A DNA stretch of 61,077 nt, filler included, from Sphacelaria rigidula (Eukaryota), in the NCBI GenBank assembly GCA_964200075.2. It is 8 parts of 8 records of this genome, joined end to end, with 100 filler letters (N's around TTAATTAATTAA, not from the genome) between each part and the next. Parts side by side here need not be neighbours in the genome. Positions count along the whole stretch, not along the records: positions 1 to 7,548 come from CAXNAA020014391.1; 7 more parts are not named here. One strand, 5' to 3'. The notes under the pieces were generated by a model that was given only the letters and a program-made list of their open reading frames with translations, had not been told where the DNA came from and ran no database searches. A program made the position numbers and the translations under genes. Below are positions 1 to 34,180 of this stretch, in pieces; position 1 is the stretch's first letter; each line of letters begins with the position of its first letter.

Positions 1-50
1 GCAACGCAAGTGTGGAAGGATGTCTGACACTCTGATGAGCCTCGTTTTTC

Positions 51-1435
51 GTGCAACCGAATACCCCCCCCTATCGTAGGATGACTCCTGAACGATTTTC
101 CACGGCGCCCCTAGATTTCGGCCGGTGCACCACTACACCGTTCAAAATCAAAATTCCTGATGGAACGCCACCTATTGCTGCTCGTCCGTACCGTACAAAC
201 CCCCTCTTGGCGGATAAAATTCAGGTAATCCTCGACGGATACTTACCCGCCGGTTTAATACGGCACTCAACGTCCCCGTGGGCCTCTCCGCTTTTGTCGT
301 CCGGAAGAAGAACGGGAAAATTAGACTGACGATCAATTACCAACGATTGAACGCAGTCACCAAAATCGCACGCCTGCATCTTCCCCGGATATATGAAACC
401 ATTGACTCTCTCGGCGGGGGTAAAGTATTTTCGAACTTTGACATGCAGTTCGGCTACCACCAACTTGTGATGGATCCGCAATCTATAGAACTGGCGGCGT
501 TTTGTACATCGTCAGGCCTGTATGAATGGTTGGTAACACCACAAGGTGCCGCCGGCGCCCCCGGGGCATTTCAACGTGTGATGTTTCGTGTGACGGATGG
601 ATTGTCCAAGTGCCACATGTACCTCGATGACGCGGCCATACACGAAAGCACCCCTTCCGAACATGTCGAACACTTGGCATCCTTCTTCGCTCGCTTCGAA
701 CAACACAACTTGAAACTCGCCCCGTCTGAATCCCGCATTGGAGCGACCTGCATCGAATTCCTGGGCCATTGTATCATTCCTGAAGGTCGTAGTCCGGATC
801 TCAACAAGGTTGCCGCACTTACAGATATGCCCATGCCACGGGATACATCTCACCTGCGCTCCTTGCTGGGCGGTTTGAGCTACTACCGACAGTATTTGCC
901 GAACCTAGCCCAAACCCTCGAACCTCTCACCTCCCTTCTCGAAAAAGGAGTGAAATTCGCGTTCACCTCGGAAATGGAGGAAATAGTACGTCAACTACTC
1001 GACACCCTCTCGCGACCACCAATCTTGGTTTTTCCAGACTGGTCGGCCGCTGAGAATGGTTCACGTCCATTCGAATTTTACACGGATTCATCCAAAATTG
1101 GGTTTGGCTGCACGTTGGAGCAGGAACAACCAGATGCTAATATTCGGCCTATTGTTTACTTGAGTCGAACCACCTACCCAAACGAACCAAACTGGTCGGT
1201 CATGGAGCAAGAGGCCGGTGCGACGTTTGGGGAGTGCGGCGTCTCCGTCAGTACTTGTATGACATTCCGTTCGTGAGCTATACAGATTGTAAGTCTGTGG
1301 AAAACCTCAGCCAAAATGGCGGAACACAACGCCCGGGTCCAACGCTGGTTTGAAATCCTGTCTTCTTACAACTTCACGCTGAAGTATCGAACAGGACCTC
1401 AAAACGCAAATTCTGATTTTCTGTCTCGCTTGCCC
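51..1435 (+). pseudogene. pol: Gypsy pol: reverse transcriptase and RNase H (frameshifted)
   Basis: RPYR...SPWASP / VVRKKNGKIRLTINYQRLN, FDMQFGYHQL, PQGAAGAPGAFQR, catalytic YLDD, FLGH; RNase H FYTDSSKIGFG...RPIVYLSR...NANSDFLSRLP; frame changes near 295, 1225 and 1315. Confidence 0.95.
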
Positions 1436-2460
1436 ATCCCGGCCCAACCCATCGACAGCTCCGCCTTGGGACGCATCACGGATCCCACCGAAGACATTGT
1501 ATATTTCATTAGCAGAAACGGTCGTAGCGATATCTACACACCCCTCTCACTGAACAACAACTCGTCACTTGGCATGGATGGGCTGACGACTACAGCTCAC
1601 GCTTCTGTACCAGGCAGTATGCCACCTCAATCGTTGTTTTCAGTTTGGAGTGGAGCTAGTACAAACCCGAGCGGGTATGATCATTTCCGTGCAACTGGTC
1701 ATCGTATGGTTTATGCTGCAGATGTAGACCCGTCTTGTGCTGACTTCATCCTCCCGGTTCAGGTGCGAAATCTCATCTCGAGTAGAACCGGGGGACGACG
1801 GCCCGCCGAAACGGCCGCTGGCCCGGACCTGCCTATCCCAAGCCCCATCCCGGTGCCCGATATTTTCCTTGCGCCCCCTCACCCACCGCGGCGCGAGGCC
1901 CCCAGAAGATCGACTCCATCCACGGCACCCCTTCCTACTATATCCGAAGCTTCGGCTTTGCCCCCCTTCCCCGGTGATGATGCACCCACTGATGCCTCAT
2001 CATCCGATGCGCTAGTCGACGTAGGATTCGAAGACAATGTTCCGCTTGAGAGTACACTAACTGATTTCCCCGCGCATGATCCAAATATCCCCGATTCGAG
2101 TCAACACCACCGTGACACGAACCCTTTCATTTTGGAAAACCCGTCGGATAGTGTATTTGAGGAACGTTTGACCCTTCTTTCCCACGCCGATTGGGCCAGA
2201 GAACAACAAGCTGAACCTGCTTGTAGAGCGGCTATGCATTATCTATCCAAAGGTTGTCCGTCTTCTTTTCCAGCAACCGAATTCCTCTTGCCCGCTGGGG
2301 ACCACAAAGCCCCCACACAGGGTGAAGTTACTGAACTTTCGCGGAAAGGTGTGCCTTATACGGATGATGATAGTGTCGTTCTCTTGGTTCGCCGGCCCAC
2401 AGCGCCCCTTCGTGTGGGTAAACCTACTAGTAAACATGCCTGCTTGTTAGGTGATGACCC

Positions 2461-4345
2461 CACACGAATTTATGTGCCGATGCTGCTGCGCCCATGGGTT
2501 CTCCATGAGTGTCATTCGCAAGCATCGACACATCTGGGAGTTTCTCGGACCTCCCAGATGGTTGAGTGTTTTTATTGGTGGATTTGTATGGATCAGTGTG
2601 TACGTTGGTGGGTGAGGCGTTGTCTTTTGTGTCAGGCGCGAAAACTCACGTCAAACAGTTCGTTGGCCGATTGTTTCCATGCCACTCCCAAACGGGTCTG
2701 GTGAAGTAGTTTCGTGGGACTATTTTGGCCCCTTGCCCCTGACGGATAGTGGTCATAAGTATATTTTGTTGTTCACGGATAGATTTTGTCGACATGCGGT
2801 GATACACGCCGTCGCTGCCAGTAGCTATAACGCGGAAGATACCGCCAACATTCTTGTATACACGCATATTCCGCATTGGGGTGTGCCCAAACGATTGTTA
2901 TCCGATAACGGCCCGCATTTCGCCGGCAAGCTTTCTGCTGCGATCAGTAACCTCCTGGGTGCCCATCGTATGTTTACAAGTTCATACCATCCGTCCACAA
3001 ACGGTGGGACCGAACGAGTGAACCATACGATGGCTCAAATGCTTGCAACGGCAACCAACGAACGACAAACGGACTGGGACTTGCATTTGCCCCTTATTCA
3101 GATGAACTACAACAATTCAGTCAATGCCACAACGGGATTGGCTCCCAATGAAGTTCATATTGGCCGTATGCCCAGATTATCACTGACGATGTTCGAACGG
3201 AAATCTTATGGGGGCCATCAGAGTTCAGATAGGGATATCGCGGAGTACTATATTTCTGTTAGTAATCGCCTTCGTCTAGCGTATGAGGTGGTACGCGAGC
3301 AGAACCAGATCAACGCAGCGAAAGTAGCCAGGGCAAACACTGTGTTGGATGATGCGATCAACAATCGTCCGGTGTGGAAGGTAGATCAATGGGCATGGGT
3401 ATACAATGATGTGAAGACCGTAACTCAGGGGGCTAGCTCCAATAAGACGTCGTTGGATAAGGTCTTGAAGTCGAAACTATCCTCGAATTGGACTGGCCCC
3501 TGGAAAATCTTGACGGCAGGGCCCTGTGATGCTGCACCCGACAATAGTCCGGTAGGCGAGAAACTTTTGTATTTGGATTTTCCCACTGATGAACCTGGCA
3601 TCAAACCCAGAAACCGAGTATCGATGCTGAGGTGTAAACCGTGTCTGCCCCCGCATGATGCATCCGAAATGCCCAAGCAATTGCCAATGGGTCTCAGTCA
3701 GTACGTGTTGACCAACTATGCGACCAAAGCCCCCCCGTATCATATGACGGCTGAAGATGCCAACGGCCTCCTTGAGCGAGTAGTGGTAGATCGCATCTCG
3801 GGCCATCAATTAGTCCGAGGTCGTGGAAATAAAATAGCGGTTATGTACCAGACTCATTGGAAGGGTATCATGCGTGTTACATGGGAGCGTGAGGTCGGCT
3901 TACGTCACTTTCGTCGGGAAATATTGCTGTATTGGGTAGGAGATACCGTCCAACACCGCCCGTTGAATAAGATATTTAGGTCGATCGGCAAGGGAGCTGC
4001 CGCTCGGGAACTGGCACGACAGCACTCGGCGCGGTTTGCTGTAACAGGGTATAGCCTTCTCTCGCGTTTACAATACATGCGGTCTTTTCACGGACAACGG
4101 TTGCCAAAGGGGGCGTATTTTTGGTATAAGGCTTTGGATTCCCTGTGGTGGTTGGGTAAGATTCATTTGGTCGATCCTGCATCTGACAACTCCTACTTTA
4201 TTCGTTTCTTCGATGACCCGAGCCCCCTTGAGATTCGTTTGGACGATGCCTACTACACCGAGGTGCCTCCAACGACATGTCCAAGGCGATCTCGACACAG
4301 CCGTTCTACGCAACACGGACACCGCTTGGGAGGCAGAAGGCTCAT
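2461..4345 (+). pseudogene. pol: Gypsy integrase: HHCC zinc finger, DDE core, C-terminal chromo-like and Tudor/PWWP-like modules
   Basis: HECH...HLG...CLLC; WDYFGP, LSDNG, GTERVN; WTGPWKI; VVDRISGHQ...MYQTHWKG...TWERE; GAYFWYKALDSLWWLGKI...YFIRFFDD; frameshifts near 2650 and 4260. Confidence 0.9.
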
Positions 4346-4539
4346 GATGCCGCATCCGTGTCTCCTTCCCCACTCACCTTGCGTAGTATACCATGTTCGA
4401 ATGGCTTGTCTTGCATCGTAGCGTCGTTGGAAAACCATGTGTTCCCCCCCCCCCCCCCTTCATTTTTGTGTAGCCTCGTTCCTCTAGTTGTTGTTGTATT
4501 CTGTGTTTATGTGTAGCTTGGTACCTTCTTGTGTTTTCT

Positions 4540-4630
4540 TTGTTCTGTGTTGTGTTGTGTTGTGTTGTGTTGTGTTGTTTTGTTTTGTATTGTTTTATTT
4601 TGAGTCGATGTATATATATATATATATATT
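4540..4630. repeat. (TGTGT)n and (TA)n microsatellites in the retrotransposon 3' region
   Basis: Directly visible. Confidence 0.9.
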
Positions 4631-6737
4631 GGTACTCCTGGGTTCCTATATCGGTGTATTCCGTGTCGACCGTTCCACAAACATTCCTGACCCCGAGTCT
4701 GGAACATTTTGAACCTTCGTCGTCCGCGCCGTGCACTCACGACCAATCCGTATACTGGAACCGTCATCACGAGTTGTTATCTTTCCTTTCTTCTTTGTAC
4801 GCACCTTTGTCGTGTTGGTTTATTAGGCTGTTTTTTTGTTGTTGTTTCGGTCGCGAGTTTCCAGAGCGAGCGCCAGACATACCTGACCCCCCCGTCTGGA
4901 ATAGTTGCGCTTTTGTCCAATCGCTCCGCACACGACTACCACCTCCATCTTGAGGATCGGTCGCCACGTGTCTTTTTTTTGTGTGTGTGTGTGTTTCACG
5001 TTGTGTTTTTGTATCATGGGCGATAGCAACCAAGGTCGAGAGTCTGAAATGTTTTGAACTACTCGGCTGAAACTCTACTTGCTTCGTACACGCGATCACC
5101 GCTTCCGTTTACACGGCCGGTCGACATGTGATGTTATTTTTCTGCTTCATGCTTCTGATATGTTGTTTTCGCCGTTGCCAAGCGTACCCCTGGTTTTACA
5201 TTTTGGTTTTGGTTTTTGCGTCTATGTCGGGAAACGCCATGAGTGTTCCAACGTTCCTGAACCTCGAGTCTCGGAACACTCGGCCTATTTTTTCTGCGAG
5301 TCCTTCACACACGCGACCGTTCTCGTTTATATGAAGGATCACGTGTGATGCGACGCAACGGATGGTTTATACTTTGGTGATTGGAAAGTTACGACGAGGT
5401 CACCACTGGCCACGTCGCACGTCATGTTGAGGAATTGTCCTTACAGTAGTGGAATGTTTGGTTGCAAACGTCTCCTCATACATAACCATTGCGTATCATG
5501 ATAGGATAGATTGCTCTTCCGGAACAGACCGTTCCGCCATGTCGATATTTGACAATTGGTACAGCCTACAGGCTCAGAGTCCGCCACTCGCTACTTTCTT
5601 GTCACTGCTTACACCAGTTTTTTTGCGTACGGTTACCCGCCCATAAAGCGGTCGGTGGTGTTTTGTTTATATCAGGGGTTATTGGACGAAGTAACGTGAC
5701 GGTACGACTGGCTGTGGTTTTTACCTCAGTTTGTCTTCGAGCCAGTCTCGTTTTAGTCCGAATGGATGAATACCGTGAGGGGTGGACTGCGTTGGTCCTC
5801 CCTGTTCCGTGTATTTGTCGTGGTTCAGAAAGGTATTGAGCGATCCGCCTCGGAACTACGTTGTAAGTAGGCCCGAAGGTTGTGTATTGACTCAAATACG
5901 TTTCTTTTTACGTGTACGGATACCCGACCTTGCAAACCGGCCGGTTGTTTTGGTATCTCGTCGAGTGAGAAGAAATACAAAAAGTGTTGTATGACTGGAT
6001 CATCACCCAGACGTCCATAGCAACACGTTGCTGTCACGAACATGTACCGACAGTTAACTCACGTCAACGGGTTGATTGTCTGTATCATGTATTTTGCTTT
6101 GTTTTCAACGTATGGTTTTCGCGGGAAAGCACCTTTTTCGCGACGAAATCGGCTGTACGTTGTTGGCTTTTGCCGATCGACTGGGACGAGTGATTAGCAG
6201 GAAATTGGTTACCGGAGTGATATAAGGCCTTGGTGGGCTTGCTTGTTTTTTTACGAATGAACTCAAACAAATCGGACATCCGGTAAGAGTAAGCTGTTTT
6301 CATAATATAGTTATGGCAGGGTATGATGACCGTTTCAAGGATGAGCTCCTGACTTCCTGTGACTACACCGAAACGCTCACGGCATTTTGAGGACACTGCA
6401 TCTTAGGGTATCTCAGTTTGATGTGTTTTTTTGCTTATGATTCCTCGTGAGAATCTCACGGAATTCGAGGACAATGTACTGTATCGGTTCGATTTTTTCC
6501 TTTTGCCTTGTTTTTTTTTATGTTTTGTGTTGGTTTGTTTGTCTTTCTTTCATTCTTTCTTTCTTTTATCTCTTTGTGCTGGTCTACATTTTTTGTGGTG
6601 CGGGAGAAGGTATGGATGAAGCACTCTCGCCTCTTGTCATAATCTGCGAGTGCTTCAACCATGAGAGGCATATGTTATGTGATGTGTACTCTGCAGTTAC
6701 CAAAGGTTTTCGTCGGGACACACAGACCGGCGGGTAC

Positions 6738-6952
6738 TAGGGTTGTATATATTTGGCGAATATTTCAGCGGCTTGTAGATGCCGCACGAGCCAGCTGTTG
6801 GTTGATACGTGCGTAGTTGGACGCTATCGTATGGGATGAAGTGGAATTATTGGACTTCAACGGCAGATATATACGTAAGCTTATTTGAAGTTGCGTAGCT
6901 ACGTTTCTGAGTCATGACTTTGAGTAGAGAAGTGTCCGGGAACTGACTAACA
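6738..6952 (+). repeat. Candidate 3' LTR
   Basis: Follows a G-rich GACCGGCGGGTAC (weak PPT); ends CTAACA, whose reverse complement TGTTAG partly matches the start TAGGGTTG; 5' LTR is not in the contig, so it cannot be confirmed. Confidence 0.5.
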
Positions 6953-7294
6953 GGCAAGTGCACAGCCCCCTCTGTTCGCACTCTCTCACCGCCTAAGGCC
7001 TCAACAGCAGCAAAGGATAAATCAACACGTCGGCAGCGTCTGATTGACTCCAACTATCCCCTTTCTGCGGAGACTGAGCCTCAGGATCAAAGGAGACTAT
7101 ACGTGAGTTTTCCCTGGGTGTACTATATAACTTTTGCTTTGCCCACTTCTGTATTTGTACACACCTGTTCTGTTTCCGCAGCTGAGCATACAAACAATTG
7201 TAGCTTGCATCGCAATCGAAAGGTCAATTGATCCTTTGGGCATCCGCCATCACCACCCTGCATCAACAAGCAGCTACGGTGACAATCCAACTCT

Positions 7295-7501
7295 TCATTT
7301 GACGGTTTTGCCCCCGTTTTGCCTCATCGTAAGTACTCTACGCAGGTCTGCTGCAGTCTGCGCAGCGTCATGCTTTCCACCGGTTGTAGTATACCCGGCA
7401 TGCTGTCTCACAGCATCACGCAATTCATCGGGGGTCATAACCCAACCGTCCTTGTACATGTCTTCGAAGCAGCGGTGGATGTAGACAGTAAAGGAATCCT
7501 C
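7295..7501 (-). CDS. Putative terminal exon of an unknown gene (EDSFTVYIHRCFEDMYKDGW...GGKTVK*)
   Basis: Poly-C tract plus TCGTAG acceptor, 69-codon frame ending in TGA. Confidence 0.5.
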   Translation of the reverse strand, partial: EDSFTVYIHRCFEDMYKDGWVMTPDELRDAVRQHAGYTTTGGKHDAAQTAADLRRVLTMRQNGGKTVK

Positions 7502-7548
7502 CTACGATAGGGGGGGGGGAGTATTTAGGGCCATTTGTTCCTCGAAAT

Positions 7549-7648
7549 NNNNNNNNNNNNNNNNNNNNNNNNNNNNNNNNNNNNNNNNNNNNTTAATTAA
7601 TTAANNNNNNNNNNNNNNNNNNNNNNNNNNNNNNNNNNNNNNNNNNNN
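7549..7648. other. Artificial contig spacer (N + TTAATTAATTAA + N); same spacer at 15196-15295, 22843-22942, 30490-30589, 38137-38236, 45784-45883, 53431-53530
   Basis: Identical 100-nt spacers every 7647 nt. Confidence 0.99.
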
Positions 7649-8269
7649 ATAGCTCATAATAAGTGTATATCCTGTTGCATCAAGTTTTCATAACCCTGCA
7701 GATGGGTGGGGAAGGCGGGGGAGGGGAGAGGACGTGCATTGGATTGGCAAGATTTTCGTAGACACGTGTGGACGTGTTTGAATGCGTTCTTGGGGGAATG
7801 ATGTGTTGAGATACAACAGTAAATCACGTTTACGCGTGTCGTCGAGATGTCTCAGAAGTGACTACAAGTAGCACATTGTTGGCTGTACATTTTTCTTGAA
7901 ATAAGCACAGCTGTGGCGACAATTGAGGAAGATACAGGCTGTTCGTGGCCATCTACACGTTTCCCCGGGCATGCTTTGGCCTATAGAGAGGGGTGCCAAT
8001 CTGCGCGTACTGTGGCCTCCTTGTGGTCTACGAGGGAATGGCTTGTGAACAGTCGGTGTTCGCTTGTCCCATTTCGTTCCCATGTTGCATTCCCTGTAAA
8101 CCAGGGTCAAATACGACTCAATCCTAGACATTTGTTGTCCACCAGGCGAAGACTCTGACATCTGCCAGGATGCACCTCGCTTCAGTATTTCCCACGTCTC
8201 CTGCAAAGCAGAGTCAGTGTGACCTGTTTGCGCGGCACTTAGAGCCGTCCTCCATGTCCAACCGTCCAG

Positions 8270-8421: not shown

Positions 8422-8552
8422 GTGGGTTCGGTATCGTGGTATGACGCTCGCCCCTGGCTCATGTGGGTTGTTGAACTCTTGCACGCATCCTACCGCCCTG
8501 TGCTGGCGGCGATGTGTGCTTCTCGTTGTTTTTACCCTCCGTGCGCTCGAAG

Positions 8553-10628
8553 GGCGCCGGGCAAACCCCCGCGCCGCCTTCGCCTGACCAAGACGGCGCT
8601 TGCAACGCCGATCCGGGCAATGTTTTCGAGGTGTTAGACCCTCCCTCTGGTCGCTCTTGTTCGATTCGCCAGGGCTCAGCTGGTGGCAGCAAGTTTCGAC
8701 TCGATCTCGGGGCAGCAGGCGATGGCGATGATGGTGATGATGATGGCAGCGGTCGTGGGGCCGCTGCTGGCGGTGCTGGCGGTGTTGCGGCAGTGGCGGC
8801 GGTGGCGGCGGCACCGGTGGCGACAGCTCAAGCAAGGATGCACGAATGCGGTGATGATGACAATAGCTGTAAAGAGCGCACCACAACAGCAACCGATACC
8901 GCTGAGCTCCCTGAAGACGTGCGCTACGGACGCACGAAAGACGAGCACAAAGACGACAGCGGCAGCTTCGAACCGTACAGCACCACGGCGACCGCGATGC
9001 GCGGCGCTGGTGACGGCGGTGGTGGTGTTTCAGGTACCGGGTACATCGGGGCACCTGAAGATGAAGCTGAGTGTGCCGTTTCTCCAAGTCATTCTACCGA
9101 TGGGGATAATGGATATGACCGTGACTGCAATGGGAGATCCAGGGAGCGACAGACGAAATGCGAGACATCCACGGAGCAGCGAGTTGCCCCGCGAGGGAAT
9201 TTCGTTGCCGTCCCGAAACATGATATCGGCATCGCTGCGGTGGAGTCATCCGACATTGACCCGAAGGAAGATCGTCAGGGCCACAGTCACTTGCAAAAAA
9301 CGGTGGATGATACTGCAGCAGCAAAAAGTCGCCGAAATGGAGGAAAACCCAATAGTTCACGGGTTTCTTCGGCGAATGATGGTGGGGCAGAGGACGTAGA
9401 CAAAGGCCATTCCAGATCATTTTCTTCGAGAGCCGGTTGTGCAGGAATCAACGACAGCACCACCATTCCGGCGACAAACCGCTGCACTAACCGATCAGCT
9501 GCAGTAACGGGCTCCACCTCAGTCATTGCCTCGGCTGCCTTCCCTGCTGTCATCGCACCCGGCGGTTCAAGCGACCGCATAAATATGGCCACCACCGACC
9601 ATCTGCAGCAGCAGCCAAGCTGGCGGCTACCTTCCCCGTCTGTAAGCGCCGCCGCCGAGCGGTTAAGGCAAGGCCTAATGGAAAACGGCACCGACGGCAC
9701 AATCGCCGCTGCCAGTAGCCAAAACGCCCGTTCGGAGATGGGGTATGTGGCGGCACGGGGGAACTCGAGAGTTGGGGTTGATAGCACTGGCCGCGCTGCT
9801 ATTGTGAGGTTTACATCGCCGGGCACAGCGACACTGCCTATAGCAGCTGCTACTGCCGCCGACACTGCTGCTCGCGACGTTGCTGCCCCCGCTAGTTCGG
9901 GCGGCGACTTGTCTGACGTCGGGTTTGGGGTCGGCGAAGTAAAAGGTTCGCGATATTCGGTCGCTGCGGTTGAGGAATCGAAAGAGGTGTGCGGAGTGAC
10001 TGCTGGTCATTCCATGGCACCCATCGCTGATTCTGGTACTGGTGTTGGTCTTGGCCTCATTGATGGTGCGCGGGTCGGTGCTTCTGCCGCGTCGCTGTCG
10101 TTGGCACGTGCGGACGCCCGTGCTGTTGGCCAGGCTGGCGGCTGCAGCTTGGGTAGCGCCCGACCGCTATTTGGCTACTCTGTGGAACGACGGCGTCGAA
10201 CCACCTCCACGGCCACGCCTGCTTTGTCGCGGAGCATTTCCAGAACCAGCCGACGGACCATTCTTTGGACGGGTAACGTTGAGCAACCAGATGGTGCTGA
10301 CCTGACCGCGATGGCATCGCCGCACGAAGCCGATGGCACCGTAGACGACGTGGCTTCTCAGGGTGGGAATCATCGCAACAAAATTCGACGGCGCAGCAAC
10401 GACCAAGGCGATGTCGACCACGGCTCGATGAGCAGCACGGACACGACTACCCGACCCGCGGAGGATGGACGGCCGCGTGCAGGTTGTTTCGATCTTGTCG
10501 GGGCGGGTACGAGTATCTCGGTCAGAGCTGTGTTGTTTCAGTGGTGGCGACAGCCGTGGCGGTCGTGGTTGCGTCGGTTGGAGGCGTGGGCACCTCATGC
10601 CGTGTTGGCGACCTTTGCTATGCGTCAG
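8553..10628 (+). CDS. Large internal exon (~692 codons), low-complexity Ala/Gly/Ser/Asp-rich, unknown protein
   Basis: 722-aa open frame, pyrimidine tract/AG at 8552, CAG|GTGAG donor at 10628. Confidence 0.75.
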
Positions 10629-11001
10629 GTGAGCGCACGTTTGAGAGTTTTGGTCCGGAAGACAGTTGTGTACAACCGGTAAGTCGGCACGGTATCATCG
10701 CCCGTCTTGTGAACACGGCTGGACTTCGTTGCGGATCAGTTGGTTAGCGACAATGACACAGTTTATCAGTGAGTTACGGTCGAAAATCACTGGCTCTTTT
10801 TTCTGGATACGTCTTACTGTGGGTGTGGTCGCCGATAGTAATGCATGTTTGAACAGACATTTGTCGACTAAATGGTAAAGTAGAGCGCATCAGCCCTGTG
10901 TCTCACGTAGCGCAGTCACGTGGACCCTTCGATTGGCCGGGCGAGGAGTTTGAGCTTGTCGTGACCAGCCGTCGCACAATATCAGAAGAAGCGTTCGCAT
11001 A

Positions 11002-26600: not shown

Positions 26601-28901
26601 CTAGCAGTACAATGGGCTAGGGATATCCCGAATGAATTTTGAAGACGGAAATTTCCTCACCCATGTTCTCGTGTAGCTCCTGACTTCACGAGCCCATGAA
26701 CGAGAAAATGATCTGGGCCCCGCTGGGCAACCCCTGCCGTAGCAGGATGCTCCCTTGGTGACAGGAATAGAGTGGTGGTGTTCTTCTGTTCAGTTTCCCT
26801 CGCGAGGGTGATAAAGCCGTGCACTTTCCACCACCCGTGTGCAACCAACCGTTGTAGGCCAGGGGCGTATGCACGCATCATGTTCTTGCCAATCGACGAG
26901 CCGGAGGAGTTCTGTTCGGTGGAGGCAGGAGGACCGGTCCCACCCCCCTCAGACGCATGGAGGTGAAGATGGTCGCAGAGAAAACTCGAGAGCTGGTGAC
27001 GGTCAACGGGCACGGGATAAATCCTGTTTACTGCATCAAGTACGATCAGACGGGGCAGTATATCTTCACCGGTGCTGACGACCGACTCGTAAAGGTATGA
27101 TGCTGTTTCGATAACGCGAGATTTATTTTTGCGAAGAATGACCTATCATATGCAGGGGGTAGAGGTGAGGGAGGATCTACAGCCTCGAAAGTGCTGCCCA
27201 CTTGACGCACGTGGGAGAAAAATACTAGCGTTCCACGCGTACGTCGGGTATTTTATTTTGCGTCATATCCACAGCTGAAGATGCATAAGATTTAGAACCG
27301 AAGCGAAAGATCGCTGGGTGATGCGTGCACCTTTCTGCCTTTCTGCCTTTCTGCCTTTCTGCCTGCCTGCCTGGGACTGAGTGGCGATTTTGTGATTATA
27401 TCCACGAATATAACAACAGTCATCTATGGAATCATCACTTTCAGTATCGTTTAGGCACCAACCGCCAAGCCCCGATCCATCCATCCATTCATCTATCCTT
27501 TTGTTTGCCCTTGGCGCTGGTCCTGAAACTGAAACAGGTGTGGTCGGCGATCACTGGCCGCCTACTGTTGACTCTCCGCGGCCACTCCAGCGAAATTACT
27601 GACCTTGCCGTCAGCCCGGACAACTCCTTGTTGGTGAGCTCGTCCGAAGATCGGAACCTGCGGGTCTGGGATCCCCGCACGGGTGCGTCGCTCGCCGTTC
27701 TCAGGGGGCACAGCCAAATGATTCACCTCGTGCGCTTCGCCCCCGCGGAGAGTATACTGGTTTCTGCTTCGGAAGACGGGACTTGCAGGGTCTGGGACCT
27801 CAGGAATAGGGCCAGGTGTGTGTGTGTGTGTGTGCTCGTGTGCTCGTGTGCTCGTGTGCTCGTGTGCTCGTGTGCTCACGATTCAGGTGTAGACTTGTCA
27901 CACGTATTTTTTGTGAGTTGTGAGTAGAGGTGCGGGTTGTACTTGTGTTATTTTCACGTTCATATAGATTTTCCTTGGTTACGCCCTGAGTGTTGTAGAT
28001 CCCCCCCGGAAGAAGTGCGCCCTCCTATCCCCAGGCTTCGTGCCCGGTCGGGTGCAAGATTTTTACGGGCACGGGTACGGATCAGAAAAAGCAAGGCAAG
28101 ATACGGAAATCTACTTATGTGTGTCCAAGTCCGTCCCCAGGAGGCTTACCCCCCTCCCCACCTCGATTATTCCCCTCGCCTGCCTGTGCAAATGCCCTCA
28201 TTTCACCGCGCGCCCGGCAAAATAACGATTGCATAAAAAATACGCCGAAACATGGGGGAAAAGTTTGGCATCGGAAGAAATCATCCCAATAGTGCTCCCG
28301 CACACGAATGAGCAAGGAGTCTGTGTGCCGGTGAAGTGCCTATCCGTCAGCCAGGCCGGTAACCTGATCGCTGCCGGCTGCAACGACGGCGCTGTGACCC
28401 TGTGGTCGTACTGGGACAACGACGAGCCGACCCCCAGCGGCCACAACACTCGCAGGGGCAAGCCTAGGGACGGCGAGGTCTTCCGCCGTCAGCGCCCGTC
28501 TGCCGACGACCGCTCACCGTCGCTTGCGCAAGCGCCGGCTGCGCCGTGGTCGCCCGTGGCGCAGGCGGCGGCGGCGGAGGGTGCGGTGAATATGGCACCA
28601 TTCGGGGCCGGTATCCCGGATTTTGGTATGGCAGATAGTGGCGGTGGAGCAGCTTTCGGTCCCTCTGGAGTGGTCGGTGCGGGCGAATCGGCAGGCGCAA
28701 CTGGCATGTTTCCTGGAAGTGCGGCGGGAGCGACGGCGGGGGCGGGAGGGTCGGGGGCGGCGGGGGCGGCGTCCGCTGGGAACGGAGAAGGAGCGCGTCG
28801 GGGGGGGGGTAGTACGCGCGGACGGGGGCGTGTTGGCGGTAGGGCGGAGGAGGAATGGGATGCGGGGCCTCTTGAAGTGCGGCGCGTCTTGAAGCTGATG
28901 G
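23635..28901 (+). CDS. BRWD/PHIP-like WD40 protein, partial; exons 23635-23949, 24604-24848, 26247-26400, 26858-27094, 27538-27815, 28264-28901
   Basis: N-terminal LLGVTYNWQNQPRPASYDDVRARYPHLPANHL resembles the BRWD N-terminus; [53 protein letters not shown]; all five introns GT-AG and phase-compatible; bromodomains not in contig. Confidence 0.88.
27816..27878. repeat. (GT)n then (GTGCTCGT)n intronic simple repeat
   Basis: Directly visible. Confidence 0.9.
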
Positions 28902-30589
28902 GTGAGCGGCGGATTGGCATGTATTTGTACCCTTCGGCTATGCGTGTGTGTACTGGTTTTCCCCGTGGCGGAAAATTCATTTCCTGTGCTCTGTTTTCAT
29001 TGCAATATTCCGGTGTTAATTCTGGACAGCGCTTGCGCTTTTTTTCCGTATGCTGCTTCCGTTGTGTATGCGTTGCTCGCAAGTAAGTGGTATCTTTGAC
29101 CAGGCCGTTCATAAAGTTACCACCTTCTGCACCCCGGATATCTGGCGAAGAATAAACCGAAAGACCTCATCCATATGACCTCTCTAGATATCTCACAGCA
29201 CCCGCGTGCAAAATTTCAGGGTCTCACTCGATAAAACGGCGTGAATTATCGCCCGAATGTGGTTTGAGTATACAACTGAACGCGGAATCCCCCGAACTAC
29301 TTGATTAGAGTATGCTACCAACGTTTTCCTTGTGCGCTTGAGCTTCAATCAAACGTTTGGGACCAGCTTTTCGAGCTACGCAACGAAACCTTGTACGATC
29401 GTTCCTTAGACTACCTCCGGACGGGTCGATTTTGTTTATTTATTATGAAGCAGTTTGTACCGGCTTCTGGGGTGTTCACGCTGAGACCACCGGAAGCCTG
29501 AATGAGCGGATGGCCATTAAATTGTTCTTAGACGGTGTTTGTTTCAAGTCGTAGCACCCATGTCTACCGAACTGCCAAGTGTACGAATGATCGGGCTTTT
29601 CGAAGAAAGATGCGAGAGAAATCGTCAAGAGACTTTCGGGATCTTCGATGCATATCATCATTGGAAATCCGACGTTGCCAAATCCCCACCTCACCGAAAT
29701 ACCACGTTTTGGGGTATAACTCAATCTCATACAAGGCGTTTTCTGAGATGTTTTTCGCGTCAGATTCCCTAGCTGGTGACGATTACCAAGGTTTGATTTT
29801 GATGAGATTGGGTTTAATTAATTAAGTCGAGATTTCGCATTTTTAATTTCAGAACAATTCGGAGGCATCTGATTAACCGAGAAACGTTTTCACCACCAGC
29901 GCCACGGTGGAAAACGCAATAAAAAATGTTGCCATGCCATACTGTTATTTTGCTTCTAGGGGTCACTATGATACCAAATACGTTTTTAGCTAGTCAGTTT
30001 CGCGTTCTGTATCTAATGCGGAATGCATTTTGGGCATTCACCCTGAACCAGCCTGTTCATACAGAGTAGACACCAGTGCTGCAGACACATTTGATACCAG
30101 TGGAATTTAAACATCTTCCGCCGAACTAATGTTCGAAGTTTCAAACATCCCCGTCACAATTCGCACATCCCCCCCCCCCCCCGTTTTGAGCTTTTTGGTG
30201 CCGTTGTGGGGCAGAGTCCAGGTCCTAATTTTCAGCTGGGGTGGACCCTCTCAGGCGCACGCTGTTGTTGTAGTGGCGTTGAAGTTTCCTGTCATTTCCA
30301 TGTGTGGCATTGTAACAGTACTGTCTGTAAAAGTTTTCATGCGGTTTCAGTATCGCTAAAACCTTGCACAAAACGGTCGCACATTCCCTCCCCCCCCCCC
30401 CCCCCCCCCCCCCCCCCTTCTTTTTCTTTTTTTTGTCAAAAGTTTTTTTTTTTCTTTTTGGTGTTTTGTGGTATTTTGTTGTTATAACGNNNNNNNNNNN
30501 NNNNNNNNNNNNNNNNNNNNNNNNNNNNNNNNNTTAATTAATTAANNNNNNNNNNNNNNNNNNNNNNNNNNNNNNNNNNNNNNNNNNNN

Positions 30590-31762: not shown

Positions 31763-34180
31763 CTACACCATACACGACCTGACGCCGCTCTCTAGAAGTT
31801 CCTTCGACAGATGGCGTCCAATGAAAACCATCTTACAGCGCCGGGTCTCTCCCTCTCGCCACGCGCTGCCGACTACCTCCGTCGGCGCTACCTCAAATAA
31901 ATCCGCTACTCCCTGCACGACGAAGCGCTCATCACGACCGTGAACGCTCACCACCCCCTTTACGCGATACACTTCGGTTCCCCCCGGAGGTGGCTCCCAC
32001 AGCAAATCTCCGAGCCACCTCTCGAGACGCATAAGGTCCAATGACCCGGGCACTTCTACCGAATGCGTTGTCACTGCCGGGTCGTGCACTGAGCAAGGCC
32101 CCTCTTTTACAACAGCAGCGCATTCGGTACAGTCACCTTCCCCATGATCATGGACATTGTTATGACCGTGACTGTGATGCTGCTTTTCCTCGGCCATTTG
32201 TTTCTGGTGACTGTCACCCTCCACTTTTCTTGACCCCGGCTGGCTGCTGTCGCCAGAGAGACCTGCCGGTCTTGTTTCTTTACTAGCGTCTCCGCTGCTC
32301 AGCGACGGTTTTACTGTCGGCGCCAGACCAGGGTCAACCGCGAGTGCAAGCTCTGGATCGAAGCACTTGGTATCGAGGATTAAAGACAAGTTTACCACGG
32401 AGCGTTGTGTGCAATGCACTTGTGCGACAGCGTTGACGTGCCGTACTTGAGTCAGTACGTCATCTAGATCCTCCGCCGACACCAGGTCCGTCTGAAAGGA
32501 GAAGGTTGCAAAAACGGAGTGTGAGATGCAGGTTTGCCGCGGGGGTCGTGCAGAGTGTTGGGTGGTCTGCCTGATGTCGACAACGCCAATAACGAGGTAA
32601 CAAGCACGTCTTTGTGCGGACGCCCCAACCACTGAGGAAACACCACAGTGCACCAGAACAAGTCATCAATATGAACACATATAACGTGTGCTGACCTTGT
32701 TGACCAGTATGCGGTCGGCGTATGCCAGCTGCACGGCGGCCTCGTTTTGGTGCACGCCAGATCTGTCCTCCTGAGCGCTCTCTCTACCCCCTCCGGCAGC
32801 GGCACCACGCTCAGAGCTGTCTTCTCCCTCTGTTGTATCCGACGAAGTACGTTGCAACTGTCGCCGGATGTTCTTGGCGTCCACGAGCGTGATGATGCCG
32901 TCCAACCGCAGCACACTTTCCAGAGCATCGTCAAGCCAGAAAACACTAGCTACTGGACCCTGCCGAGGACGCCGAGTCAAACGTACAGATGAGTGAACCG
33001 TACCAAAATTAACTCACGCAACTAAGCAAAACATACACTATAATCATGTGTCGAGCAGAACGCTCCGGTGCGTCTCCGCTCAGCTCACATGTATTCTATT
33101 GCACCCGCTTCAAGACACGGTTATCACATGCAATCGTCAACAGCTAAACAAGCACAACAACCATAAAGAAAAGAACATTCCAATGAAAAAACACAAATCA
33201 TGCGTATTGTGGAGACTTGTGTTGGATATTATATCGAAAGTTTTGATGTATCGTATCGAAATATCGTCATCGTTATCGTATGGAAAACATTTCGATAAAA
33301 CGATAACGTTTTGTCGAATCTGGACACGTTTTCTCCTAGGCTGGGAGACCTTGATTAGGCCGATTCCGATGGGAAATAAAGCCATGTATCCCAATTTTTT
33401 TGCCTGCGGCGGCACGAGCCGAGGGGGGTGGGGGGGGGATTTGGAGCTCGAACAGCAAGCGGACTCGCTGGGCTTGCGGCGGTTCGGCTTCGCCGAAATT
33501 TTTCGAAATTTACCTTCATCGAGCGCTGAAAAAGCTGATATCGTATCGAAGTGCTAAATGGTTCGACATCCAACACTAGTGAAGATCACATATGTTATGA
33601 GCGTGATAAACACCAGGATACACATGGAAGCCGGGAAACAGTCTCGGGAACAAGGTCCGCCAGTGACTTACATGAACGGACTCGAAACATTCAAACCTGT
33701 GAAACTGGATCTTTGGCAACCTAGGCAACGGGGTCTCCGGCATAAAGAGCTCGGAACGAAGGAGCCACTGCATAAACCTTAATTGAACATTGCCGGTACT
33801 GCCGTACAGGTCCGTTCAATTGTTCTTCTTGCCCATCATCGGCCCACGGCCAAATCCTTGCCTAAACGACAAGGACAAAATCACACCTCACTTTGGAGAT
33901 CCTTCGGCAGCAGGGCACGACAGCGTTCTTCTTCGGAACCCGTAACTCTACCGCCTCACCCCTGTCGAAGCCTAGTTCACAGTATATTGTAACACAGTAC
34001 ACGAAGGATACCTACCGGGTTGGCAAGGCCTGTAGTCTCGATGATGATATAGTCGAACTTGTTTCGTCGCTGCAGCAAGGCCTCGAGAGTGGTCACCAGA
34101 TCGTCCTTGACCGTGCAGCAGATGCAGCCGTTTTTCAGCTCAAACAGGTTATCTTCCATCAGAGAACCATCGACACCGTC
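31763..34180 (-). CDS. ZNG1: COG0523/CobW-family zinc-chaperone GTPase (ZNG1/CBWD-like); last three exons 34180-34016, 32959-32696, 32491-31763
   Basis: ELKNGCICCTVKDD, IIIETTGLANPGPV, LDGIITLVDA, QLAYADRILVNKTDL, His-rich linker, CobW_C YRVKG...VQGV...VFIGR; phase-0 GT-AG introns; Walker A exon not found in contig. Confidence 0.93.
33217..33578. mobile_element. Short-TIR (hAT-like) MITE in ZNG1 intron
   Basis: Ends TTGTGTTGGAT / ATCCAACACTA with clustered subterminal TATCG(AA) repeats. Confidence 0.55.

Follow-up and report, generated by a model that had tools for sequence, protein, structure and literature searches.

A Tudor domain at the C-terminus has been described for Gypsy-10_Ec32 (Repbase synonym Gypsy-10_ES), a Gypsy element of Ectocarpus. 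The 2025 paper on it, in the portion covered here, calls it the first transposable element (TE) with a Tudor and also names a homologue from Tribonema minus (PMC12477816). The same portion states that three other Ectocarpus Gypsy lineages carry chromodomains and that brown-alga gypsy lineages fall outside the chromoviruses. ECR-1, a centromere-associated Ectocarpus gypsy, combines a brown-alga integrase with a C-terminal chromodomain (PMC11541908, in part). Among the chromoviruses, elements of group I (MAGGY type) and group II (plant Tekay, Reina and Galadriel) likewise have a chromodomain fused after the integrase, and gypsy integrase chromodomains are described as targeting integration in the covered parts of PMC3350952 and PMC11541908. 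As for the chromatin of the hosts, PRC2 is reported absent from brown algae in the covered part of PMC13076208, which together with that of PMC12477816 describes no H3K27me and mostly no H3K9me in these organisms, with H3K36me3 in active chromatin and H3K79me2 and H4K20me3 in repressed chromatin.

Here we describe a gypsy family whose integrase continues, past its catalytic core and C-terminal domain, into a predicted chromodomain fold followed by a predicted Tudor-type barrel.

Results

A decayed gypsy copy with an extended integrase

Positions 1-4350 (+ strand) of the window, by which we mean the whole 61,077-nucleotide stretch of Sphacelaria rigidula DNA that was analysed, hold the pol gene of a dead Ty3/gypsy LTR retrotransposon copy of the brown-alga type. 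The left window edge cuts the element, and its 5′ part falls outside. The domain order is RT - RNase H - integrase (Pfam RVT_1, RT_RNaseH(_2), Integrase_H2C2 and rve, in that sequence), with the zinc domain, RNase H and RVT_1 all upstream of the rve core, and the HHCC zinc domain and DDE core that mark Ty3/gypsy (Metaviridae) elements are both present. Ty3 Gag-Pol (7q5b) was the top PDB match of the integrase-core profile (E 1e-27), and the window pol is colinear with P0191, an uninterrupted RT-RNaseH-IN-chromo-Tudor polyprotein of 1849 aa. The features of the copy are as follows.

96..1273, + strand: Ty3/gypsy pol, RT and the beginning of RNase H (Pfam RVT_1 E 1.7e-22, RT_RNaseH_2, RT_RNaseH)
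1277..2701, + strand: rest of RNase H, long proline-rich spacer and integrase zinc-binding domain (about 2474-2644)
2679..3413, + strand: integrase catalytic core (Pfam rve, about 2694-2993) and post-core helices, in a third frame
3414..3578, + strand: integrase C-terminal segment with the motif W.W.YN ... NWTGP.KIL, conserved in alignment A1
3579..3770, + strand: conserved segment RVS..RCKPC ... PPYH.T (invariant A1 columns), after the integrase C-terminal domain and before the chromodomain
3771..3941, + strand: module 1, predicted three-stranded chromodomain fold with one helix (model, structural matches)
3942..4094, + strand: two predicted linking helices, ..YR.MR.GAA.REL.R.. and ..W...F.. 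(pLDDT 86-94)
4095..4259, + strand: module 2, first four predicted Tudor-type barrel strands, LP.GA.FWYKA.D.LWWLGKI ... Y..RF.DDP.P..I.L (model)
4255..4262, + strand: break, with a short stretch missing and a frame shift (alignment with P0001-P0007, three-frame translations)
4261..4347, + strand: C-terminal tail of the family as an out-of-frame remnant that includes barrel strand five (.CLQRH) and the conserved end (frame-1 translation)

Integrase_H2C2 was matched at E 2.7e-12 (residues 387-443 of ORF 1316-2704), and a spacer like that of the window also occurs in P0191, between residues 827 and 1201. The rve match in the integrase ORF (2679-4421, + strand, 580 aa) has a Pfam E of 3.3e-6 at 27.7 bits, which is under the cutoff of 32.6. 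We take the segment at 3414..3578 to be the SH3-like module, of GPY/F type, that gypsy integrases carry. Read from 3780, the integrase ORF gives VVVDRISGHQLVRGRGNKIAVMYQTHWKGIMRVTWEREVGLRHFRREILLYW and, about 55 residues later, LPKGAYFWYKALDSLWWLGKIHLVDPASDNSYFIRFFDD, which ends near 4260; both peptides thus lie after the integrase core, where the preliminary description had placed them.

The copy is interrupted at several points. With intact P0191 as the query, tblastn places a frame change near 179-326 in the RT region (frame 3, then 2), an in-frame stop occupies 1274-1276 in the stop map, and the frame of the zinc domain closes at a stop at 2702. Relatives have the stretch that is absent at 4255..4262, and so do other copies of the family, whose contigs part from the window sequence just before 4262. 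After this deletion, Tudor strand five is no longer in frame; the frame-1 translation of 4261..4347 matches the tail of P0001 and ends at a stop at 4345-4347. With its stop, frame changes and deletion, the window copy cannot itself make the cassette. Neither a second copy of the element nor a repeat of its 3′ region was found within the window. None of the sequencing runs listed is recorded as RNA; one run, guessed to be RNA but possibly DNA, gave deep contigs over 3876-4235.

Module 1 has a predicted chromodomain fold with an incomplete cage

An AlphaFold model of window 3699-4268 (model 1) had a pLDDT of 88.2 and a pTM of 0.77. In this model, module 1 consists of strands 30-40, 46-54 and 61-64 and a helix at 65-80, with pLDDT above 90, which is the chromodomain arrangement of a three-stranded sheet with a C-terminal helix packed on it. 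Structural searches, one of them against 48,161 chains, returned Chp1 (Z 6.9-7.2, rmsd 1.8 over 53/55 residues), HP1 (Z 6.4-6.8; for 1kna, rmsd 1.4 over 50/52 residues) and Polycomb (Z 6.0), with chromo shadow domains nearly equal to the chromodomains (Z 6.3-6.6); all Z values for both modules are below 8, a range that the tool warns can mean a common arrangement. Identity to Chp1 and HP1 was 28-31%, with HP1 reaching 31% at Z 6.8.

Domain libraries capture little of this fold. Pfam Chromo (PF00385) did not match the window protein at E <= 1, nor did any Pfam family match its C-terminal 273 aa at that threshold, and among 103 relatives Chromo matched 11 weakly (best E 1.7e-4). The chromodomain profile had MPP8 as its sole match (E about 0.9), and searching the ESM Atlas with the whole 190 aa gave Chromo clusters at 0.83-0.84, which are leads below 0.9.

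We mapped the cage columns with our own alignment, guided by the ranges of the structural matches and using the numbering given in the covered part of PMC3350952. Of the classical HP1/Polycomb cage (Y24, W45, Y48), the family retains one aromatic position, W45, which is W in 68/80 sequences. At position 1 (Y24), L is commonest (31/55) and the window copy has V; at position 3 (Y48), L is again commonest (48/79) and the window copy has I. The family also retains the chromo box and an (S/T)WE motif (columns Y..THW.G and (S/T)WERE). Together, the model and these columns support a chromodomain fold that lacks cage positions 1 and 3, and the absence of the first and third cage aromatics, originally noticed in the window copy, holds across the family.

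Module 2 is predicted to be a Tudor-type barrel

Four strands of module 2 are present in model 1 (140-144, 150-158, 165-170 and 176-180). The fifth is found in the intact relative P0001, at residues 297-302 with a block-mean pLDDT of 93-97, in a model whose pLDDT is above 90 over residues 125-310. Combined, the two models predict a five-stranded SH3-like barrel of about 55 residues. In the structural searches, Tudor, Spindlin, Agenet and PWWP chains scored Z 5.0-6.1, with PHF1 and Spindlin1 at 6.1 each, Spindlin-4 at 5.5, RDM15 at 5.4 and PHF19 at 5.2; LBR, TDRD3, PHF20L1, BAHCC1 and SMN were further matches. SH3-like barrels that are not readers also scored in this range (TraI domain Z 6.3, Spt5 5.1, Ski2 5.0). 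Foldseek paired module 2 with the PHF1/PHF19 Tudor at a probability of 1.00 (30-33% identity, rmsd 1.8-2.1 over 46-48 columns), and returned no match at E <= 0.001.

When the module 2 profile was run against 177,635 PDB sequences at E <= 10, 12 of the 14 matches were PHF19 or PHF1 Tudor domains, with E values of 0.0027 for the best PHF19 match and 0.036-0.45 for PHF1. Across 34 family members, no Pfam Tudor family and nothing significant in Pfam matched module 2; what did appear was SH3_VIII-1_N in 7/34, Agenet in 1/34 and PWWP in 1/34 (E 0.12). Apart from that one PWWP hit, a single PWWP chain was matched structurally (Z 5.3, 14% identity), and module 2 reads LWWLG instead of a P-W-W-P-type motif. 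Module 2 thus models as a Royal-family/SH3-like barrel, more probably of Tudor than of PWWP type; the preliminary description had allowed for both, and its suggestion of such a barrel is supported by the models.

The cage of the PHF1/PHF19 Tudor, which we take to comprise four aromatics, was used to map positions in module 2. Two of the four have counterparts in the profile alignment with PHF19 (W in 59/78 and F in 60/78), the other two positions in the family being A/S/G and P, and the two acidic residues that follow the conserved F are retained. The four-residue cage is therefore incomplete. Searches outside the PDB gave leads below 0.9 in the ESM Atlas (Spin-Ssty, PTM/DIR17 Tudor, Tudor-knot and KIF2A-like) and, in a BFVD fold search, mainly phage proteins (best E 0.029) with no TE-cassette-like match. 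Among 47 candidates, no longer protein with module 2 was found, which is weak evidence, and a near-length search gave 6 proteins, one of them named.

Both modules are conserved and under purifying selection

The family comprises 497 representatives (E <= 1e-3). Relatives conserve both modules at 44-83% identity, and the two occur together in 72/183 matching proteins. Among named relatives, the closest is a protein of Sphacelaria rigidula (83% identity), while Ectocarpus proteins reach 50-52% and cover under half of the query region. In intact relatives both folds lie in one ORF with the integrase, as in P0191, and metagenome loci found by searching with alignment A1 have open frames of 1238, 1254, 598 and 608 aa, each running through both modules.

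Both modules are under purifying selection. From the chromodomain to the Tudor, pN is 0.18-0.26 vs a pS of 0.68-0.73, giving a dN/dS of 0.08-0.17 (in round terms, about 0.1-0.2 for the two modules), compared with 0.05-0.10 for the integrase core; dS is saturated, so all dN/dS values given here are rough. This supports the preliminary description, which would have been refuted had the second module not been conserved across copies. Within the integrase, conservation is highest in the chromo segment (0.71 vs 0.645 for the core). Between these parts, the integrase C-terminal segment at 3414..3578 has a mean pairwise identity of 0.64 and a dN/dS of 0.08-0.09, and the segment at 3579..3770, which has low pLDDT in model 2, has a dN/dS of 0.04-0.09 in two deep pairs and 0.17 in the near-identical L003/L004. 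The linking helices (residues 91-108 and 123-130 of model 1) include A101, found in 94/103 sequences, and the linker has a dN/dS of 0.14-0.31 among L001/L002/L003 and 0.37 for the window vs L001. In a tree built from the integrase to the chromodomain, the two Ectocarpus proteins without the Tudor branch among Tudor-bearing lineages at a fork that is not resolved, and a very long branch leads to one row; this topology is compatible with either a gain or a loss of the Tudor.

Discussion

Relation to described elements

HIV-1 integrase is tethered to chromatin via the PWWP domain of LEDGF/p75, and the window family resembles this system in that an integrase would be guided by a Royal-family reader; in HIV-1 the reader belongs to a host cofactor, whereas here the reader-like folds are within the integrase polypeptide. 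The closest solved relatives of module 2 are the Tudor domains of the Polycomb-like proteins PHF1 and PHF19 (profile E 0.0027-0.05; fold rmsd about 2 Angstrom), which are host chromatin proteins that read H3K36me3 according to their PDB entry titles, whereas module 2 is part of an integrase.

Among retroelements, plant group II chromodomains (CHD_II) lack Y24 and usually Y48 and keep W45 and TWE, as the window family does, and module 1 shows the full set of features by which CHD_II is defined in the covered part of PMC3350952, namely the cage pattern, the chromo box, TWE and the position at the integrase C-terminus. Since that part reports CHD_II from plants only, the resemblance may be convergent. 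The window family differs from group II in being of the brown-alga type and in adding two helices and a predicted Tudor barrel. ECR-1, as far as the covered part of PMC11541908 describes it, has all three cage aromatics and no Tudor, whereas the window family keeps one. With Gypsy-10_Ec32 the family shares a brown-alga Ty3/gypsy pol that ends in a Tudor; in the covered text of PMC12477816 that element is listed with a Tudor only and kept separate from the three chromodomain lineages, and the window family is distinguished, by description, through its upstream chromodomain fold.

The preliminary description had tentatively suggested that the architecture was new, and had named prior cataloguing as grounds for dropping the idea. 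With a Gypsy bearing a C-terminal Tudor already reported, the claim is weakened and half of it falls on those grounds. No description of a chromo+Tudor tandem was found in the literature covered, and the covered text of PMC12477816 does not mention one.

What the cassette might do

We favor, with moderate confidence, the view that the window holds a decayed copy of a high-copy gypsy whose family cassette is a chromatin-tethering unit that biases insertion. In the family, the integrase extends beyond its usual C-terminal domain into a conserved cassette of a cage-poor predicted chromodomain, two helices and a predicted five-stranded Tudor barrel. Judging the packing from pTM, we propose that this cassette acts as one rigid tethering unit on the intasome and would bias insertion toward a chromatin state. 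The half-cage of the Tudor would be the likelier methyl-lysine contact, with the chromodomain as a peptide-binding or scaffold partner, and where H3K9/H3K27 methylation is largely absent, the candidate marks would be H3K36me3, H4K20me or H3K79me. That the chromo-Tudor cassette reads histones, which mark it would bind and that it directs insertion are all inferred. A more specific version, which we regard as possible if somewhat doubtful, is that a PHF1-like Tudor, to which two helices lock the cage-poor chromodomain, forms a self-encoded tandem reader. It would have arisen in a lineage lacking H3K9/H3K27 methylation and would recognize a mark, or a combination of marks, peculiar to brown-alga chromatin (one or more of these three), and so choose insertion sites.

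The cassette could instead be selected and yet read no histone mark, binding a host protein, DNA or RNA or aiding intasome assembly. Such a role would have parallels in chromo shadow domains, which dimerise, and in the SH3-like barrels of integrases, which bind DNA. The cages of both modules are incomplete across the family, chromo shadow domains match module 1 almost as well as chromodomains do, the barrels of TraI, Spt5 and Ski2 match module 2 at similar Z, and plant group II chromodomains are likewise without a known interacting factor in the covered part of PMC3350952. Nevertheless, nearly all solved chains that match the module 2 profile are methyl-lysine-reading Tudor domains, module 2 retains two cage positions along with the acidic residues behind its conserved F, and module 1 has the chromo box and (S/T)WE typical of retrotransposon chromodomains. 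We consider a cassette that reads no mark unlikely, though it is the most serious competitor to chromatin tethering.

Two other accounts concern where the motifs came from. Retroviral integrase C-terminal domains are SH3-like, and module 2 might be an internal duplication of the integrase's own C-terminal domain, with no Tudor captured; Rous sarcoma virus and MMTV integrase chains do appear in weak Foldseek rows (probability 0.13-0.35). However, profile-profile comparison of the family's integrase C-terminal segment with module 2 gave a probability of 0.76% over 13 columns, and the module 2 profile matches PHF19/PHF1 and no integrase, which makes a duplication very improbable. Still harder to credit is that both motifs are chance resemblances in the functionless tail of a pseudogene. 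The window copy is indeed decayed, and Pfam is blank over the last 273 aa of its protein, but the modules are conserved in the 497 representatives, relatives keep intact long ORFs, pN is far under pS and the fold is confidently predicted. The size of the family, the folds, the intact ORFs and the selection already contradict a chance origin.

Implications

Integrase-reader fusions show how mobile elements pick safe or useful landing sites, and they are also natural chromatin-reading tools. The absence of the usual repressive marks from brown algae raises the question of what the retrotransposons of these hosts read. The conserved and strongly selected chromo-Tudor cassette is a defined protein that can be tested against H3K36me3, H4K20me and H3K79me, and the large family of insertions can be compared with existing ChIP-seq maps of several brown algae. 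Our analysis also refines the 2025 report, since the Tudor of the window family is preceded by a predicted chromodomain fold that domain libraries miss, and the published Tudor-bearing element may likewise have an upstream chromodomain fold. If the tandem-reader version is true, the family would provide the first description of a reader cassette with two modules in an integrase. The tandem would then either have arisen separately from the Tudor published for Gypsy-10_Ec32 or have gone unnoticed as part of it.

The integrase lies in a Ty3/gypsy pol gene

The window's left 4.4 kb is the plus-strand pol gene of a Ty3/gypsy retrotransposon, continuing beyond the window edge. Pfam placed its domains in three open reading frames (ORFs):

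278-1276, +, RVT_1 and RNase H domains
1316-2704, +, integrase zinc domain
2679-4421, +, integrase core

The top PDB match to a profile of the integrase part was the Ty3 Gag-Pol structure (E 1e-27). The two peptides singled out in the preliminary description were found at 3780-4260, in a 580-aa ORF with ~55 residues between them. There, after the core, lies a cassette of module 1 (chromodomain-like, 3771-3941), two linker helices (3942-4094) and module 2 (Tudor-like, 4095-4259). In this copy, the final 273 residues had no Pfam match at E <= 1.

Two further segments of the polyprotein stood out. One, a proline-rich spacer of ~370 residues, lies between RNase H and the integrase zinc domain (window ~1500-2470; residues 827-1201 of P0191, an uninterrupted relative) and had no family match. 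The other, which links the integrase C-terminal domain to the chromodomain, is 3579-3770 (RVS..RCKPC ... PPYH.T); it has many invariant columns, with dN/dS of 0.04-0.09 in two deep pairs, as low as in the catalytic core, and 0.17 in one near-identical pair. Pfam had no match to this second segment, and its model was of low confidence; possible roles are metal binding or docking on the chromodomain as a strand.

Module 1 has a chromodomain fold

We modeled window 3699-4268 from 103 aligned relatives (model 1; pLDDT 88.2, pTM 0.77). Module 1 forms three strands and a helix (residues 30-80), and its structural neighbours, in re-ranked Foldseek hits and in a Foldseek-independent search of 48,161 chains, are chromodomains, bearing out the fold first proposed for it. 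The neighbours were Chp1 (Z 6.9-7.2), CDY1 (Z 6.7), HP1 (Z 6.4-6.8, 28-31% identity; 1kna, rmsd 1.4 over 50/52 residues) and Polycomb (Z 6.0), with every Z below 8, a range that can reflect a common arrangement. Chromo shadow domains scored almost equally.

Sequence support for a chromodomain was weak but consistent. Pfam Chromo matched 11 of the 103 relatives (best E 1.7e-4), and MPP8 chromodomains were the sole PDB matches to the module 1 profile (E ~0.9). At the cage positions Y24, W45 and Y48 (numbering of PMC3350952), the W alone is kept across the family. According to the available text of that paper, group II chromodomains of plant chromoviruses have this same cage pattern and keep a TWE motif, where the present family has (S/T)WERE.

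Module 2 is better supported as a Tudor than as a PWWP

Module 2 forms four strands in model 1 (residues 140-180), and in the model of P0001, an intact relative, the tail contributes a fifth (block-mean pLDDT 93-97). Past that fifth strand the family carries a conserved C-terminal tail (..G..RN.D.SRG..; P0001 residues 297-324 and, in another frame, window 4261-4347). Pfam did not recognise module 2, and Foldseek returned no match at E <= 0.001 for the two-domain model; the only rows at probability 1.00 were the PHF1 and PHF19 Tudor domains (30-33% identity, rmsd 1.8-2.1 over 46-48 columns). VIA gave Z 6.1 to both PHF1 and Spindlin1. In the wide search, Spindlin-4, an Agenet protein, the RDM15 Tudor, a PWWP, the UHRF1 tandem Tudor, PHF19, LBR, TDRD3, PHF20L1, BAHCC1 and SMN scored Z 4.8-5.5, and other barrels included a TraI domain (Z 6.3), Spt5 and Ski2 (~5). 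A profile of the linker and module 2 had 14 PDB matches at E <= 10, 12 of them PHF19/PHF1 Tudor domains (E 0.0027 to 0.45). The preliminary description had left Tudor and PWWP side by side; the model and the PHF1/PHF19 matches agree with that general fold, with Tudor the better supported.

Aligned to PHF19, the family has counterparts for two of the four cage aromatics, W in 59/78 and F in 60/78, with A/S/G and P at the remaining positions. We take these four to be the PHF19 cage, with numbering checked against the structural alignment ranges. Near the cage positions of module 2, the aromatics W142, Y143, W150 and Y166 are strongly conserved. Separately, we considered module 2 as a duplicate of the integrase's own C-terminal barrel; hhalign gave this no support (probability 0.76%).

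The window copy is dead, and intact relatives carry the cassette

The window copy of the element is dead. It covers residues 403-1807 of the 1849-aa P0191 across three successive frames; an in-frame stop falls at window position 1274, and a frame ends at 2702. At ~4255-4262, a short stretch found in relatives is absent and the frame shifts, leaving the conserved tail to be read solely in another frame, where a stop falls at 4345. In public runs, contigs from other copies part from the window sequence exactly before 4262. Among the best-supported 40 of 146 single-letter differences from those copies, 19 are synonymous, and at 7 codons the other copies have the wider-family majority residue while the window copy does not, which fits private decay of the window copy.

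A search with residues 340-530 of the integrase ORF found 11 proteins, the closest from Sphacelaria rigidula (83%). When the 190-aa stretch was searched exhaustively, 497 representatives came up at E <= 1e-3, mostly fragments from short contigs, and 199 at E <= 1e-10. Both modules occur in one chain in 72 of 183 matching proteins. P0191 is a single open polyprotein that runs from RT and RNase H through the zinc domain and core to modules 1 and 2, and in four of five recovered metagenome loci, open frames of 1238, 1254, 598 and 608 aa span integrase, both modules and tail. In intact members, the integrase is made with a conserved chromodomain-helices-Tudor cassette at its C-terminal end. In each of two runs (labelled with one organism code and an alga metagenome) roughly a thousand short contigs align to the stretch at 85-99%, which makes the family high-copy in them. 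In run X6, guessed to be RNA and possibly DNA, the word depths of short contigs are 2,600-8,000 across linker and Tudor (3876-4235) and in single digits over 3444-3803.

Three proteins from Ectocarpus sp. CCAP 1310/34 (P0009, P0010, P0011) match module 1 only (~50% identity), ending ~25 residues past its helix without a Tudor barrel. In the tree they sit within an unresolved fork amid Tudor-bearing lineages, not clearly outside them, and may be either deletion derivatives or members of a lineage whose barrel was lost.

Outside the element, the window appears to hold host genes:

8514-10682, +, GC-rich ORF, 722 aa, no Pfam match
28229-29086, +, weak WD40 fragment
31763-32653, -, CobW_C domain (E 1.5e-19)

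No second copy of the element was found in the window. Directly past the coding end, 4440-4640 holds a ~16-C run, a microsatellite of (GTTGT)-like units and a (TA) run. The element's 5′ LTR falls beyond the window, leaving its 3′ LTR undelimited.

The tandem appears to be an undescribed variant

The sole report of Tudor-integrase fusions that we found is PMC12477816, whose available text describes four gypsy lineages in Ectocarpus, three with C-terminal chromodomains and one, Gypsy-10_Ec32, with a C-terminal Tudor. The latter measures 11.5 kb with LTRs of 636 bp; one full-length copy and many deletion derivatives of it are present, and Tribonema minus has a homologue. Compared by description only, Gypsy-10_Ec32 has a Tudor with no chromodomain mentioned beside it, whereas the present family has both. 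The Tudor-integrase idea is already published; the chromo and Tudor tandem, with its cage-poor chromodomain, found no mention in that text and appears to be an undescribed variant.

Selection and a putative role in chromatin tethering

Among six sequences spanning the integrase, mean pairwise identity was 0.71 for the chromo segment, 0.645 for the catalytic core, 0.58 for the Tudor and 0.52 for the helical linker. Across chromo-to-Tudor codons in three deep metagenome lineages, pN was 0.18-0.26 against a pS of 0.68-0.73. The dN/dS values, rough because dS is saturated, were 0.08-0.17 for chromo-to-Tudor (0.16-0.22 for the Tudor alone) compared with 0.05-0.10 for the core. Judged by these substitution patterns, selection has clearly maintained the cassette for a long time. 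A pTM of 0.77, together with high-confidence linker helices, suggests that it may be one rigid unit.

The main rival to a role in reading chromatin is that the cassette is selected but has a binding target that is not a histone mark. By analogy with the chromodomains of other gypsy integrases (PMC3350952 and PMC11541908, in their available text) and with its closest Tudor relatives, which act as readers, the cassette probably tethers the intasome to chromatin and biases insertion. As described in the accessible portions of PMC13076208 and PMC12477816, brown algae are without H3K27 methylation and mostly without H3K9 methylation; H3K36me3 accompanies active genes, and H3K79me2 and H4K20me3 accompany repression. 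In such a setting, loss of an HP1-type cage would make sense. From this repertoire, the candidate marks that the cassette may read are H3K36me3, H3K79me2 and H4K20me3.
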